This document shows positions 16,437 through 22,362 of a stretch of DNA of 64,000 nt, piece by piece (the stretch's first letter is position 1; each line of letters opens with the position of its first letter). The stretch spans positions 1,053-65,052 of the forward strand of contig JBMNNW010000012.1 in NCBI GenBank assembly GCA_050942735.1, read 5' to 3'. The position numbers and the translations under genes were made by a program. The stretch comes from Armatimonadota bacterium. GTDB taxonomy: Bacteria; Armatimonadota; Zipacnadia; Zipacnadales; UBA5352. Below the pieces are notes generated by a model. It had not been told where the DNA came from. It made no database searches and saw nothing but the letters and a program-made list of their open reading frames with translations.

Positions 16437-17216
16437 TCAGGAGTTCAGACGCGTGTTGAGCGCGGCGCGCAGCCGCGCGATCGCCTGGGTGTGAATCTGA
16501 CAGATGCGCGATTCGGTCACGTCGAGCACCAGGCCGATCTCACGCATCGTCAACTCCTCGTGGTAGTAAAGGCTGATGACCATCCGCTCGCGCTCTGACA
16601 GTTCGCCGATGCACTCGACGAGGAGGCGGCGCATCTCGGCGCGGTCGGCGACCGCGTGCGGGAGCCACTCGGGGCGTTCGGCGTCAATGCTCGCGTTGGT
16701 GGGGGCATGCGCATCGCCCGAGGACTCCGAGAGGCTCTCGAGAGAGACAAGCGCGGCCGTGGAGGCGTCGCGCAGCAGCTTGCGGTACTCGGCGGCCGTG
16801 AGGCCCAGCCGCTCGATGATCTCCGCCTCATCGGGCTGGCGGCCAAGCTGCTGACGTAGTTCGGCGACGGCCGCCTCAAGCTCGCGGTAGCGCCCGCGCA
16901 GGCCGCGCGGCGCCGGGTCCATCCTGCGCAACTCATCGAGGATCGCCCCGCGCATGAGCGTACATGCGTAGGTGCGGAAGCTCGCGCCGCGCCCCGGATC
17001 GTAGCGATCGACGGCCCTGATCAGCCCGATCATGCCCGCGCTGACAAGATCCTCGCGGTCAACCTGCGCGGGCAGACCTGAGGCGACGCGGTCCACCTCG
17101 TAACGCACGAGGTCAACGTTCTCGGTGATCAGGTGCTCGCGTTCAACCGGCGACAATCCGGCGCTCTCAGCGGTCTGAAACACGGGTGAACCCCCTGATC
17201 GGGTGATGCGACTCAT
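16437..17216 (-). CDS. fliA: RNA polymerase sigma28 factor FliA/WhiG
   Basis: DLVSAGMIGLIRAVDRYD, FRTYA, RGAILDELR, region 4 LSERERMVISLYYHEELTMREIGLVLDVTESRICQIH. Confidence 0.93.
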   Translation of the reverse strand: MSRITRSGGSPVFQTAESAGLSPVEREHLITENVDLVRYEVDRVASGLPAQVDREDLVSAGMIGLIRAVDRYDPGRGASFRTYACTLMRGAILDELRRMDPAPRGLRGRYRELEAAVAELRQQLGRQPDEAEIIERLGLTAAEYRKLLRDASTAALVSLESLSESSGDAHAPTNASIDAERPEWLPHAVADRAEMRRLLVECIGELSERERMVISLYYHEELTMREIGLVLDVTESRICQIHTQAIARLRAALNTRLNS

Positions 17217-17394: not shown

Positions 17395-18480
17395 TCAGAT
17401 CCCCCCGGATGCTCGCGCTCGCTCGCGGCGGCTTCGGCGTCGCCGGTAGACGGCGGCGAAGATCTCAGCCACCACGGCGTAGAGCTTCTCCGGCACCGCA
17501 CCGCCGAGTTCGCAGGAGCGGAAGAGGCTGCGCGCGACCGGCGGGTTCTCGATGACCTCGATGCCGTGCATGCGGCCGAGGCGGATGATCTCCCGCGCGA
17601 CGGCACGCTGTCCCTTCGCGACGACCTTCGGCGCGGTCATGCTCACCGGATCGTATCTCAGCGCGACGGCGAAGTGCGTCGGGTTGGTCACGACCACGTC
17701 GGCCCGCGCCATCTCCGGGGAGATGCCCTGGGCCTGCATCGAGCGGCGAAGCTCTCTGCGCTTTGCGCGGATCTGCGGGTCGCCGTCGCTCTCCCTGAGG
17801 TCGCGTTTGAGTTCATGGCGGGTCATGCGAAGCTGCTTCTCATGGTCGTACCACTCGAAGGCGTAGTCGGCCGCGCCGATCACCAGCAGCAGCCCCATCG
17901 ACTTGACGAGCATCTCCGCGGCGATCGCGCCCATCGCCGCCATCATCGGCCGAAGCTGCATGTCGGCCATCAGCAGTATCTGCTCGGTGTGAGCGCGCAA
18001 CACGAGCGCGGCGACCAGCCCGACCGCGCAGACCTTCAGGATGCTCTTGAGCGTCGCGACGGCCCCCCGTGCGCTGAAGAGGCGCTTGAAGCCGTTGACC
18101 GGATTGAGCCGCGACCAGTCGGGCTTGATCGCCGAGGGGGCGATGAGGCCGCCGGTCTGCGCGGAGGCGGCGACGACCGTCCCGACGATCACGGCGAGCA
18201 TGATCGGCCCGAGCAGCATCGCCATCATCGGCAGCAGACTCGCCCACGCGGCCATCACACCGTCCGCGTCGATCTCACGCGTCCCCGCGATCCGCAGCCA
18301 GTGCTCGGTGAGGTCCTGCAGACGCCGCAGCATCCCCGTGCCTCCGAAGCGCCACGCGAGGTAGATCGCGAGCAACCCGAAGGCGCGGGTCAGGTCAACG
18401 CTGGTCGCGACCCGGCCCTTCTCCCGCGCCTGACGGCGCTTGCGCGGCGTTGGTTGCTCCGTGCGTTCCTCGGTCGCCAT
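17395..18480 (-). CDS. flhB: Flagellar export protein FlhB
   Basis: ERTEQPTPRKRRQAREKG, LNPVNGFKRLFS, autocleavage NPTH. Confidence 0.97.
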   Translation of the reverse strand: MATEERTEQPTPRKRRQAREKGRVATSVDLTRAFGLLAIYLAWRFGGTGMLRRLQDLTEHWLRIAGTREIDADGVMAAWASLLPMMAMLLGPIMLAVIVGTVVAASAQTGGLIAPSAIKPDWSRLNPVNGFKRLFSARGAVATLKSILKVCAVGLVAALVLRAHTEQILLMADMQLRPMMAAMGAIAAEMLVKSMGLLLVIGAADYAFEWYDHEKQLRMTRHELKRDLRESDGDPQIRAKRRELRRSMQAQGISPEMARADVVVTNPTHFAVALRYDPVSMTAPKVVAKGQRAVAREIIRLGRMHGIEVIENPPVARSLFRSCELGGAVPEKLYAVVAEIFAAVYRRRRSRRERARASGGI

Positions 18481-18502
18481 CGGCAGCCTCTCTCTCCGGC
18501 AC

Positions 18503-19285
18503 TCACCCTGCGAAGGCCCGCAGCACCGCGTCCATGTACGTCGCCATCACCCGCGTGATCTGCCCGATGTTGTGCAGCAACATCGGCATGCCCACCGCCG
18601 CGATCGCGAAGGCGAGTGCGATCTTCGCCGGGATGCCGACAAGGAAGACGTTGATCTGCGGCACCGCCCGCGCGACCAGCCCCAGCGCGAGGTCCGCCAG
18701 CAAGAGCGCGACCATCACCGGGCCGGCGACCCTCAGCCCGAGCACGAGCAGACTCGTGCCGAGGTTCGAGACCAGCGCCGCGAGGTCGGCGCCGAGCGTG
18801 ATGCCGCCGACGGGCACGATCGCGAAGCTGTCCGCCACGCCGCGCAGAAGCCAGTGGTGGCCGTCGAGCGTGACGAAGAAGATCAGCGCGAGCATGTAGT
18901 ACCCGGTGCTGAGGATCCCCGAGTGCGCGCCGCTGACCGGGTCGAAGAGCTGCCCCGCGCGCAGGCCGATCTGCAGATCGAGCATCTCGCCGCCGAAGCG
19001 CAGTGCCTCCAGCACCGCCGAGACCACGAAGCCCAGCGCGATCCCGAACCCCAGCTCCGCCGCGCACACGGCGACGTACACGATCGGCTGATCGGTCTGA
19101 GGGGCCGAGCTAGTCGCCACCGGCGCGATCACCACCGCGAGCGCGAGCGCGAGGGCGACGCGCACCGGGACCGGGGCCTGCTGGTAGCTCAGTCCGGGCG
19201 CGACCGCCGCCAGCCCCACGACTCGGAGTCCGGCCGGCAGAAGGTCCGCCGCCTGCTCGATCAGCAGCACGAACACTTCGATCAT
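18503..19285 (-). CDS. fliR: Flagellar export protein FliR
   Basis: Multi-TM protein; LDGHHWLL, VARAVPQINVFLVGIPAK. Confidence 0.93.
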   Translation of the reverse strand: MIEVFVLLIEQAADLLPAGLRVVGLAAVAPGLSYQQAPVPVRVALALALAVVIAPVATSSAPQTDQPIVYVAVCAAELGFGIALGFVVSAVLEALRFGGEMLDLQIGLRAGQLFDPVSGAHSGILSTGYYMLALIFFVTLDGHHWLLRGVADSFAIVPVGGITLGADLAALVSNLGTSLLVLGLRVAGPVMVALLLADLALGLVARAVPQINVFLVGIPAKIALAFAIAAVGMPMLLHNIGQITRVMATYMDAVLRAFAG

Positions 19286-21344
19286 GCGGGCACCTCCACC
19301 GTCTCCGGCTCCAGCGCGATGGCCCCGCGCGCCCGCAAAGTCAACTCGGGCACGATCTCGGCGTGGGAGAGCACGGTCACGTCGGGGAAGCTGCGGCGGA
19401 CCAGTGCGCGCAGGTGCCGGCGGATCGGCGGCGAGGTAAGGATGACCGGGGCACTCCCCCGAGCCCCCAGCTCCTCCGCCGCCGACTGCACCGAGCGCAG
19501 CATGGCGTGGAGCGCCGCCGGGTCGAGCAGGCAGCTCTGCCCCTGAGGAGTCTCGACGATCGATTCTGCGACCAGCGCCTCAAGTTCGGGGTCGAGCACG
19601 TACGCGGCGAGCGTTTCTCCGTCGCGAAGCTGCTCACAGATAGTGCGGGCGAGGGCCGCGCGCACGTACTCCGCCGCCGCCATCAGATCGCCCGAGGCCC
19701 GCAGGCCGTCCGCGAGGGCCTCGACGATCGTGGACATATCCGCGATCGGCACGCCCTCATCCAGCAGCGCCTGCAGCACCTGATGGAGCTGGCCGACCGA
19801 CGCCATCTCCGGGATCAGCTCGTTGACCGCCGCCGGGTTTGTCTGCCGCAGCTCATCGAGCATCACCTGCACGTCCTGGCGGCTGACCAGCTCGGGTGCG
19901 TGCGCCTTTATCAGCTCGCTCAGGTGCGTCGCCAGCACGACCTCCGGCTCGACGACGGTGTATCCCCGCGCCTCCGCGAGCGTCCGCTGCTCGGCATCGA
20001 TCCACCACGCCGGCAGCCCGAATGCGGGCTCGATGATGCTGGTGCCCGGGAGTTCGTCGAGGCCCTCCCGGGTGGCGATCGCCATCATCCGCGACGGCTG
20101 CAGGCCACCCTCGGCGATGCGCGCTCCGCGCAGCCGCACCACGTAGGCGTTAGGGCGCAAAGTCATGTCGTCCTGGATGCGCACCGGCGGGACCAGCAAC
20201 CCCATCTCCGATGCGATCTGCGCGCGGATCGCCCCGATCCGCTGCAGCAGCGAGCCGCGGCGGCTTTCATCGACCAGCTCGATCAACCCGAATCCGATCT
20301 GCACCGCGAGTCTGTCCGGCGCCGAGACGGCGGCCGTCCGATCATCCGGCGGTGTGTCCTCGGCGGCCTCCCTCGCGGCCTCATCCTCGTGACCACCGGC
20401 CCGGCGGACGAGCCACGCGAGGACTCCCGCGGTGGTGCCGACCGCGAGGAAGCTCAGCGTGGGCAGGCCCGGCACCATCGCGAAGACCACCAGCATGATC
20501 CCGACGATTCCGACTGCCCGCGGCTGGGCGAGCACCTGCGTGATCACGTCGGTGCCGAGGTCGTGCTCGGAGGCCGAACGCGTGACGGCGAGGCCGGTCG
20601 CGGTGGAGATCAGCAGCGCCGGGATCTGACTGACGAGGCCATCGCCGACCGTGAGCAGCGCGTAACGCTGGAGCGCCTCTCTCGGCTCAAGCGACAGCCG
20701 CGTCATGCCGATGATGAGGCCGGCGATGATGTTGATGACAACGATGATGATCGCGGCGATGGCGTCGCCGCGCACGAACTTGGTGGCGCCGTCCATCGCG
20801 CCGAAGAAGTCTGCCTCGCGTTCGATGGTGCGGCGGCGCTCGCGGGCCTCGTCCTCGGTGACCAACCCCGCCGAGAGGTCCGCATCGATCGCCATCTGCT
20901 TGCCGGGCATCTCGTCGAGGGTGAAGCGCGCCGCCACCTCCGCCACGCGCTGCGAGCCGCTGGTGATGACCACGAACTGAATGATCACGAGGATGAGGAA
21001 GAGGATGAGCCCGACCACAGGTCGCCGCCGACGACGAAGTTGCCGAAGGCCTCGATGACCTTCCCGGCGTGGGCGTTGAGGAGGATCAGACGCGTCGAGG
21101 AGATATTCAGCGCGAGGCGGAAGAGCGTCGCCACCAGCAGCACCGACGGGAAGACCGCGAACTCCAGCGGCTCCCGCACGTACATCGCCACCAGCAGGAT
21201 GCACAATGCGACGCCGAAGTTGACCGTCAGCAGCAGGTCAAGCACCGCGTCGGGCAGCGGAATCAGCATCATCGCCACGAGGCCGATGATCCCGACCGCG
21301 ATCATCGCGTCGGTCTGCCGCAGCGCACGCCCGAGGATCGACAC
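19282..21344 (-). pseudogene. flhA: FlhA with a single-base frameshift near 21018-21019
   Basis: N-terminal frame reads ...VIEAFGNFVVGGDL then continues out of frame; conserved VVGLILFLILVIIQFVVIT...RFTLDEMPGKQM is in the next frame; adding one G (CTG GTG) restores FlhA. Confidence 0.88.
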
Positions 21345-21346
21345 GA

Positions 21347-22054
21347 TCAGCCACCCGCCCCCGCGCGTAGTCTCCCCGCGATCCGCGCCCGGATGCTCGC
21401 GGCCGCACGACCGTAGAACTCCTGCGCTCGCCCGGGCGTGATCTGCAGCAGTGCGGCGATCTCCGGGAAGCTCAGCCCGTCCTCGAAGTACAGCGTCAGG
21501 AGCCGCCGCTGATCCTCCGGCAGCGCCGAGACGGCCCCCACCAGCGCGCCGCCGCCTCCCTCGTGCGGCCGACCGGGCAGCAGCAACTCGGGACTGACGC
21601 CGAAGACCAGCCCGGCCTCGGCGAAGCGCTCGGCAAGCCGCCCCTCGTCGAGGCCGAGGGCGCGCGCGACCTCGCGATCCTCGCTCACGTCCGGGCAGCA
21701 TTCCGACAGCGCCGAGCACAGCGGCGCGATGCGGCACGGCCACGCCGCCTCGAACCACGAGCTTGACAGCGCCCACGCGCGCATGCCGCCAACCACCCGG
21801 CCCATCACATCGCTCTCAGGCGTCAGCTCTCCGGTGCGGCCGTCAGCAAGCTCCAGCACGGTCACGAGGCCCTGGCTCATCAGCAGACCCTCGTCGAGCC
21901 ACGGTGAGATGCGCGCGCCCAGCCGCCCCATCGCAACCCGCACAAGCGCCGTCAGCGGGCGGAGGGCCTCGCAGTCACGGGTGACGATGAGCGGCTCTCC
22001 GCCACCCTCGCCGGAACTTCGCTCGCCTCGCCTCTGAGTTGTGCCTCGTGCCAT
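21347..22054 (-). CDS. Degenerate FliA-like sigma factor paralog
   Basis: Region-4 HTH LPEDQRRLLTLYFEDGLSFPEIAALLQIT; N-terminal part collinear with FliA region 2 but missing its conserved motifs. Confidence 0.65.
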   Translation of the reverse strand: MARGTTQRRGERSSGEGGGEPLIVTRDCEALRPLTALVRVAMGRLGARISPWLDEGLLMSQGLVTVLELADGRTGELTPESDVMGRVVGGMRAWALSSSWFEAAWPCRIAPLCSALSECCPDVSEDREVARALGLDEGRLAERFAEAGLVFGVSPELLLPGRPHEGGGGALVGAVSALPEDQRRLLTLYFEDGLSFPEIAALLQITPGRAQEFYGRAAASIRARIAGRLRAGAGG

Positions 22055-22092
22055 CTCGACTCTCCCACCCGGTCCGCTCAGATGCCCGCCCG

Positions 22093-22362
22093 TCATTGCA
22101 CGTAGCGCGGGATGTTCGTCAGAAGCTCGGTCGTGAACCCGGCCAGCGAGCGAAGCATCCACGAACCGCAGGCCAGCACCGTCAGGCCGATCGCCACGAT
22201 CTTCGGGACGAATGTGAGCGTCATCTCCTGCACCTGCGTCACCGCCTGCACAATCCCCACCAACACGCCGATCAGCAGGGCAACGCCCAGCACCGGCCCG
22301 CCGAGCTTGAGCGTCGCGATGAACATGTCCCGCGCGAGGTTCACGTAGATGTCCGTCGGCAC
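22093..22362 (-). CDS. fliQ: Flagellar export protein FliQ
   Basis: GILVGIVQAVTQVQEMTLTFVPK-type motif (GVLVGIVQAVTQVQEMTLTFVPK). Confidence 0.95.
   Translation of the reverse strand: MPTDIYVNLARDMFIATLKLGGPVLGVALLIGVLVGIVQAVTQVQEMTLTFVPKIVAIGLTVLACGSWMLRSLAGFTTELLTNIPRYVQ

Follow-up and report, generated by a model that had tools for sequence, protein, structure and literature searches.

To our knowledge, the textbook case of sigma-factor mimicry has remained a single one, PhyR, a sigma-factor mimic of the alphaproteobacterial general stress response that acts as an anti-anti-sigma factor by capturing NepR. Another departure from the classical sigma factor is SigO-RsoA (YvrI-YvrHa) of Bacillus subtilis, a two-subunit sigma in which an adjacent small partner supplies region 2. 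The flagellar sigma-28 (FliA) of Salmonella has a second role as type III secretion chaperone for FlgM, as summarized in PMC13344023, which cites Aldridge et al. 2006 (PMC1553213). Here we describe a gene located in a 64,000-nucleotide (nt) stretch of DNA from an Armatimonadota bacterium (assembly GCA_050942735.1, contig JBMNNW010000012.1, positions 1,053 to 65,052), hereafter the window. The gene, open reading frame (ORF) 22054-21347 on the minus strand, is named X, and its two sister subfamilies are named X2 and X-like. X encodes a paralogue of FliA whose influence on flagellar assembly is probably exerted through contact with a protein partner and not through transcription initiation, as suggested by the sequence comparisons reported below. 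Its parts are the following (positions in the window).

21347..22054, minus strand: X, 235-amino-acid (aa) sigma-28-derived pseudo-sigma gene (ORF and translation, homologues, hhalign, dN/dS)
21992..22054, minus strand: X residues 1-21, variable low-confidence N-terminal tail (predicted local distance difference test, pLDDT, 46-67; alignment)
21701..21991, minus strand: X residues 22-118, sigma2-like domain (alignments, residue table, Sigma70_r2 match in 0/30 members)
21581..21700, minus strand: X residues 119-158, sigma3-like helix-turn-helix (alignments, model, hhalign)
21557..21580, minus strand: X residues 159-166, the entire sigma3/sigma4 connector, an 8-residue loop (model secondary structure)
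21350..21556, minus strand: X residues 167-235, sigma4 with the region 4.1/4.2 helix-turn-helix (Pfam r4_2 and r4, residue table)

X shares with FliA and WhiG (TIGR02479; structures 1rp3, 6pfv and 9wsf) the domain order, the fold, homology along the full length, the flagellar context and a region 4 recognized by Pfam. It differs from them in that it scores below the cut-off of the family hidden Markov model (HMM), has no match to regions 2 and 3, lacks the promoter-reading residues and about 23 linker residues, and sits on a separate long branch. In Pfam, X matches Sigma70_r4_2 (E 6e-10) and Sigma70_r4 (E 1e-6) at aa 171-222, which corresponds to the clear region-4 helix-turn-helix (HTH) already noticed in a first-pass annotation made by a model from the letters of the window. 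Across 30 members of the X family the two region-4 models match 30 and 29 proteins, respectively, r4_2 being present in all. Sigma70_r2 (PF04542) and Sigma70_r3 (PF04539) match none of the 30, even at E<=1; the intact region 2 that an ordinary sigma-28 would present to an HMM is thus not found. The FliA of the window matches r2, r3 and r4. With the TIGR02479 (FliA_WhiG) model X obtains 29.6 bits, from region 4 only, for a cut-off of 189.6, versus 252 bits for the neighbouring FliA. No Pfam or NCBIfam domain besides region 4 was found in X, and neither a receiver nor a sensor domain was found.

The N-terminal pairing of X with FliA proposed in the first-pass annotation is recovered only weakly by BLASTP (E 0.02). 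Alignment of the X-family and FliA alignments with hhalign gives a probability of 98.9% (E 1.3e-17) over 205 columns covering X residues 26-231. The X family profile also matches Streptomyces WhiG (6pfv) across residues 24-225, and Pseudomonas aeruginosa FliA in two stretches. An AlphaFold (AF2) model of X built on the family alignment is all-helical with three domains (pLDDT 86.3; predicted template modelling score, pTM, 0.81), and in this model the sigma fold takes up the whole 235 aa. Its best Foldseek matches in the PDB are the sigma-28/FlgM complexes (9wsf, 1rp3, 1sc5) and the WhiG/RsiG complexes (6pfj, 6pfv). The proposed collinearity with FliA is therefore borne out by hhalign, by the profile match to WhiG and by the model. 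X is a FliA paralogue by descent that has kept three helical domains, sigma2-, sigma3- and sigma4-like. The sigma2-like domain carries the motifs VRVAxGRLG, PWLDEGLLMGxGL and VVxxxRxWARASSWYxxAWPCRxAPLC, and a variable loop at residues 70-82 replaces the RYDPxRGxxFxTYA of FliA. The sigma3-like motif A.DLGL....L.ER..EAGLxFGVSPEL is the most conserved of the X family. The sigma4 domain has its own signature, Q211-x-x-Y-G-R-A-A, where FliA has S-R-x-x-Q-x-H. Other motifs of the family are ERxxEAGLxFGVSPELxLP, LPxxQRxLLTLYFxDGLSFPEIAELL and QxxYGRAAxxIRA.

What X has lost was established on an alignment of 50 X sequences, 14 more distant relatives and 94 canonical FliAs, in which the role of each column was taken from the structures of P. 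aeruginosa sigma-28 (PMC12784957), whose numbering is used. The Phe of the FxTYA motif is present in 96% of the 94 FliAs, whereas in the 50 X no residue exceeds 18% at this position. Y76, which stacks on the flipped -11A, is Tyr or Phe in 98% of FliA, and no residue exceeds 26% there in X. R80 is Arg or Lys in 94% of FliA and Val in 92% of X, D87 (94% in FliA) is variable in X, and R97, which contacts the extended -10 element, is conserved in 92% of FliA and replaced by Ala or Ser in X. For these four residues of regions 2.3/2.4 and 3.0, which flip -11A and read GCCGATAA, no residue is thus found in more than 50% of X, save Val at R80. The -35 readers S224 and Q228 (82% and 97% in FliA, respectively) are variable in X, R225 drops from 98% in FliA to 42% in X, and H230, present in 91% of FliA, is Tyr in 90% of X. 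In region 2.2, an Asp found in 97% of FliA is Leu in 78% of X, and the second Gly (96% in FliA) is Thr or Ala. Canonical sigmas use this Asp and Gly on the beta' clamp helices, and mutant studies of sigma-70 reportedly show the Asp to be needed for core binding.

The second type of loss concerns the path between the sigma3 and sigma4 domains. From the end of the sigma3 domain to the LP motif of region 4.1 (E156..L178), the median length is 21 residues in X and 19 in X2 and X-like, versus 44 in FliA. The approximately 23 missing residues correspond to region 3.2 (the sigma finger), and a 25-residue gap relative to WhiG falls at the same place. In the models, the connector is an 8-residue loop (159-166) in X versus a disordered stretch of 19 residues in canonical FliA. 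In P. aeruginosa sigma-28 the 3/4 linker comprises residues 146-173/176 and threads into the active-site cleft (PMC12784957). Loss of the FxTYA...RGAILDELR motif had been reported from the letters of the window; it is now quantified, and it turns out to be wider, since the region 2.2 Asp, the region 3.2 linker and the -35 readers have gone too. Judged by this alignment, X is without the residues that canonical FliA uses for contacting the beta' clamp helices, for melting, for reading the -10 and -35 elements and for the finger. Of the sequence features that define FliA and WhiG, X retains region 4 and none of the others, and for this reason it is not filed here as a sigma-28. A sigma-derived module without promoter and polymerase determinants is, on the other hand, what characterizes a mimic of the PhyR type.

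PhyR resembles X, as we propose it to function, in having a sigma-derived module that is no longer a sigma factor and that binds the anti-sigma in the place of the sigma. They differ in that PhyR derives from an extracytoplasmic function (ECF) sigma (sigma2 and sigma4) and is fused to a receiver, whereas X derives from the three-domain sigma-28 and has no receiver or sensor. The score of X on NF006623 is sub-threshold, with 13 bits. By analogy, PhyR would be the functionally nearest precedent for X. SigO-RsoA also includes a sigma-like protein with region 4 and no recognisable region 2, but X differs from it by keeping a remodelled sigma2-like domain of its own. No small sigma2-like ORF is located beside X, its neighbours being fliQ and flhA in every locus examined.

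Could X nevertheless be a true alternative sigma, with an unusual manner of binding the core polymerase and its own class of promoters, for instance those of one tier of flagellar genes? This would agree with the complete three-domain architecture and full-length homology to FliA, with the part of regions 2.1 and 2.2 that is kept (LDExLL..G.GL), and with the presence in the genome of several flagellar regulators (sigma-54, an HTH-less activator and two FliAs). A conserved helix rich in Arg and Trp (R92-W94-R96-W100-W105-R108) could moreover contact nucleic acid. However, no part of X varies more among orthologues than the loop that in real sigmas forms the -10 specificity pocket, and it does so both in sequence and in length (27-45 residues versus a fixed 39 in FliA), whereas a conserved promoter would be expected to hold it constant. 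In place of the Asp of region 2.2, invariant in FliA, X has Leu, and a loop of 8 residues covers the path that canonical sigmas span with about 30, the region 3.2 linker being about 23 residues shorter. We consider an alternative sigma unlikely. The first-pass annotation had left the choice between a sigma mimic or decoy (a sink for FlgM, an anti-anti-sigma or a competitor) and a sigma of altered specificity. The former fits better and the latter less well, because the specificity loop is so variable among orthologues, because the losses extend to the region 2.2 Asp, the linker and the -35 readers, and because canonical FliA always coexists with X.

The losses described above are not those of a gene in decay. 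A search of 5.8 billion proteins gave 46 homologues of X with 43-63% identity and 196-265 aa; those with a named source are from metagenome-assembled genomes of Armatimonadota and are labelled "RNA polymerase sigma factor", "sigma factor-like helix-turn-helix DNA-binding protein" or "hypothetical protein". In the 50 aligned X sequences, 51 columns are conserved at 90% or more. The copy of the window keeps 50 of them, with R96L as the sole deviation, and is a typical member. The dN/dS ratio (Nei-Gojobori), calculated for the two closest informative pairs, to which the analysis was restricted, is 0.20 (bootstrap interval 0.11-0.36) and 0.34 (0.21-0.55), and it is below 1 in each of the sigma2-like, sigma3-like and sigma4 parts. 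In these two pairs the ratio is 0.05-0.15 for fliP, fliQ and fliR, and 0.19-0.30 for fliN, fliO and fliL. Values from distant pairs were discarded: with dS of 0.5-0.8 at 45% protein divergence, omega was inflated to 0.5-0.9 in all genes because synonymous sites were saturated or limited by the GC content of third codon positions. The reading frame of X is intact in every locus examined.

A functionless fliA duplicate in decay could explain that X evolves about twofold faster than its neighbours (44-57% identity to the copy of the window, compared with 70-78% for the FliA of the operon, FliA1, and 71-80% for FlhA) and that one congener has no X. In such a duplicate one would hardly expect that each of the three domains has a dN/dS far under 1, that 51 positions reach a conservation of 90% or more across 50 sequences and that the frame is intact at every examined locus, nor would it have persisted into three subfamilies. 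This explanation, one of two that the first-pass annotation had named as contrary to its own reading, is very improbable in view of the purifying selection observed. The data indicate that the constraint on X is relaxed but clear.

X does not replace FliA in the genomes that carry it. A canonical FliA scores above the curated cut-off in 29 of the 29 related genomes tested, and the genomes of the family to which the window belongs carry a pair, of which one closes the X operon and the other is located elsewhere. Two FlgM genes are likewise general in this family, including in the congener without X. In the genome of the window both are on other contigs, in accordance with the earlier observation that flgM is absent from the window: a strong stand-alone copy of 100 aa (C18:6632-6793) and a weak one of 97 aa (C103:14461-14625) within flgI-flgJ-flgM-flgN-flgK. 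Since every X-bearing genome also has canonical FliA (two in the family) and two FlgM, X is accessory. The second canonical FliA of this genome is located at G000:C201:22074-22748 (L010), and both FliAs obtain about 252 bits on TIGR02479. X had at first been presented as a second FliA-like sigma gene. It is a FliA paralogue, as said, but the count was different, the genome having two canonical FliAs besides X and X2.

Among 301 Armatimonadota genomes, strong X matches (>240 bits) were confined to the GTDB family of the window, where 8 of 11 genomes have one. This count is a lower bound, as are the absences across the phylum, 9 candidates per genome having been scored, and the absence in the congener G041 alone is confirmed by synteny. 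There (L038, G041:C54, 10256-12611), fliQ and flhA are 16 bp apart with no X between them. G041 lacks none of the other flagellar genes and has both FliAs and both FlgMs, and the X profile found no X2 there. A congener with otherwise intact flagellar genes thus does without X, which adds to the arguments against an alternative sigma. For comparison, G041 constitutes a natural knockout of X.

Beyond this family, a search of 1.84 billion cluster representatives gave 15 matches at E<=1e-30, then a second tier at 88-137 bits, with the canonical FliAs below. The second-tier proteins match over their full length, have region 4 only in Pfam, and consist of X2 and X-like. X2 is a stand-alone paralogue of 254 aa, present also in the genome of the window (G000:C116:34052-34651; L029 5933-6697, plus strand), with 105 bits on the X profile and region 4 only in Pfam. 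X-like belongs to two further families of this order, where its gene immediately follows flhA, for example in flhB-flhA-Xlike-flgF-flgG-flgA-flgH-flgI. In a maximum-likelihood tree, X, X2 and X-like form one clade (Shimodaira-Hasegawa-like approximate likelihood ratio test, SH-aLRT, 99) on a long stem of 1.14 changes per site. Within this clade X is sister to X2 (97) and X-like is basal, and the FliA1 and FliA2 of Armatimonadota form a separate clade (97). Because the short linker is common to X, X2 and X-like, the remodelling is concluded to have happened once, its product having diversified afterwards. An origin of X from within the Armatimonadota FliA clade was also considered; in the tree the three subfamilies fall outside that clade, possibly by long-branch attraction. 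The X family is restricted to one order of an uncultured lineage.

The surroundings of X2 are non-flagellar and conserved in a congener, with genes for BNR-repeat, Cu-amine-oxidase-N1-domain, XRE-type HTH and ferredoxin-like proteins. The adjoining XRE-type HTH protein is 85% identical between the two genomes, and the ferredoxin-like protein has a signal-anchor-like N-terminus. When a partner gene was sought beside X2, these conserved neighbours (BNR, XRE-type HTH and ferredoxin-like) proved uninformative.

We favour, on these comparisons, the view that X is a variant of sigma-factor mimicry. That X is non-initiating and acts by protein contact in the sigma-28/FlgM checkpoint is given slightly less than an even chance, and FlgM is put forward as its partner more tentatively still. 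According to this proposal X would not initiate transcription, and its 8-residue connector, which would not allow sigma4 to move far from sigma3, would keep the protein near the compact arrangement seen in sigma-28 with FlgM wrapped around it. In this compact sigma-28/FlgM state neither polymerase nor promoter can be bound (PMC12784957). FlgM is proposed because it is the protein known to recognise the compact shape of sigma-28. X might then hold FlgM as a decoy, or as a pilot bringing it to FlhA for export. Of the four leucine positions of sigma4 that pack on FlgM, three are hydrophobic in X (L171, L188 and L194) and the fourth is Arg in 52% of members; L171, L188 and L194 belong to the domain core as well.

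Several observations weigh against mimicry at this checkpoint. The compact AF2 model was rejected as evidence that X is locked in a closed form, since the model of a canonical FliA control is equally compact and only the connector length differs. This control (pLDDT 81.5, pTM 0.74) has TM-scores of 0.70/0.76 to the FlgM-bound 9wsf and matched the same closed structures. The 3/4 linker, which contacts FlgM in P. aeruginosa (PMC12784957), is the very part that X does not have. Three residues of the recognition helix, Q211 (100%), Y214 (90%) and R216 (100%), are conserved in X, and this suits DNA binding equally well. No co-occurrence signal was found between X and the copy number of FlgM or FliA, the family having two of each with or without X. 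Finally, an early-expressed sink for FlgM would tend to release sigma-28 prematurely, and for this reason the decoy version needs extra assumptions.

The conserved recognition helix raises the possibility that X is a sequence-specific DNA-binding regulator, repressing or activating flagellar promoters through the sigma4 HTH, with or without the sigma3-like HTH, and without any role as a sigma. Region 4 is the best-preserved sigma module of X, and Q211, Y214, G215 and R216 are conserved family-wide and common to X, X2 and X-like. In the mapping to sigma-70, R216 falls where that sigma has a Lys that contacts the backbone, and Q211 falls on a position that contacts a base. The name given by NCBI to some members, "sigma factor-like helix-turn-helix DNA-binding protein", points in the same direction. 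However, the helix Arg that is near-universal in FliA is kept in only 42% of X and the -35-reading Ser and Gln are variable. In addition, constraint is just as strong on the sigma2- and sigma3-like domains as on sigma4, although a simple HTH regulator could do without it there. The DNA-reading surfaces are unavailable in closed sigma-28 (PMC12784957), and an 8-residue connector leaves little room for opening. A DNA-binding role is, in our opinion, rather unlikely, if less so than an alternative sigma.

The position of X is also informative with regard to its function. The coordinates and the length of 235 aa deduced in the first-pass annotation are exact, and so is the location between fliQ and flhA. 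The frame runs from the ATG at 22054 to the TGA at 21349-21347, and the aligned Met is the start in all X orthologues. The elements around X are the following.

22061..22066, minus strand: Shine-Dalgarno sequence GGGAGA of X, 6 nt before the ATG (read from the sequence)
22093..22362, minus strand: fliQ, upstream neighbour in the same operon, 38-nt gap (stop at 22093)
19282..21344, minus strand: flhA, directly downstream of X (probable GTG start at 21344, 2 nt past the X stop)
23143-22385, minus strand: fliP
16437..17216, minus strand: fliA, the canonical sigma-28 (FliA1), last of the gene string after fliR and flhB (TIGR02479 252 bits; r2, r3 and r4 present)

The flagellar string on the minus strand of the window comprises motA, motB, fliL, fliN, fliO, fliP, fliQ, X, flhA, fliR, flhB, fliA and a sigma-54 activator, and the order fliP-fliQ-X-flhA-fliR-flhB(-fliA) is fixed in this one Armatimonadota family, being kept in all loci examined. 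In these loci the stop of X abuts or overlaps the start of flhA, which suggests coupled translation. By its place in the shared operon, X is predicted to be made together with the export-gate proteins.

A role at the export gate without FlgM was also considered, X being then an accessory that docks on the cytoplasmic ring of FlhA or on FlhB and gates or orders the substrates. X or X-like stays beside flhA through gene rearrangement, on either side of it and in three families of the order, and the suggested translational coupling with flhA would fit as well. This adjacency may, however, be merely inherited from the common flhA-(flhF-flhG)-fliA arrangement, and the paralogue X2 is found in a non-flagellar neighbourhood. 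We also know of no FlhA-binding protein with a sigma fold. A gate accessory of this kind seems improbable, a little more so than an alternative sigma.

The pilot form of the favoured mimicry connects FlgM with the gate. Chaperone-substrate complexes dock on FlhA. The two jobs of Salmonella sigma-28 could be split here between paralogues, FliA transcribing and X being a transcription-dead dedicated pilot, co-translated with FlhA, that would hand FlgM to the export gate. We regard this specific version as speculative and improbable taken alone, though slightly less so than a DNA-binding regulator. It resembles the Salmonella case in that a sigma-28 fold escorts FlgM, and X, being encoded with the export gate, could carry that half of the work. 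It differs in that the Salmonella chaperone is also a working sigma, whereas X would be a separate paralogue. In the literature searched, no separate transcription-dead FlgM-chaperone paralogue of sigma-28 was found, nor any description of a sigma-28-like pseudo-sigma family or of flagellar regulation in Armatimonadota.

If X is a mimic, it would be a second, independent case of sigma-factor mimicry after PhyR and the first derived from sigma-28, and it would sit at the best-studied assembly checkpoint of bacteria (sigma-28/FlgM/export gate). If X is indeed a FlgM pilot, no export chaperone before it would have had a sigma-factor fold. Should its partner be FlgM or FlhA, the X family would provide a natural separation-of-function allele of sigma-28, with which the chaperone role could be dissected from transcription. 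It is also a warning for annotation, since X proteins at present go under the names "RNA polymerase sigma factor" or "hypothetical protein".

Some features of the neighbouring genes may be added. The order of the export-gate genes (window 17395-22362) is unusual, with fliP-fliQ-X-flhA-fliR-flhB instead of fliPQR-flhB-flhA, and neither flhF nor flhG was seen adjoining flhA. In the assembly, flhA is split over two frames, ORF 21776-20985 containing the N-terminus and ORF 21204-19282 the remainder. The frame break is located near 21009-21023 (minus strand), at GAC CTG TGG TCG GGC, where there is no homopolymer. The gene is intact, encoding 685-701 aa, in 8 of the 8 relatives examined, and the break must be an error of the assembly or else a lesion that arose very recently. 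Lastly, public gene calls begin the FliA of the operon at a GTG at position 17183, 11 codons downstream of the ATG, giving 248 instead of 259 aa.

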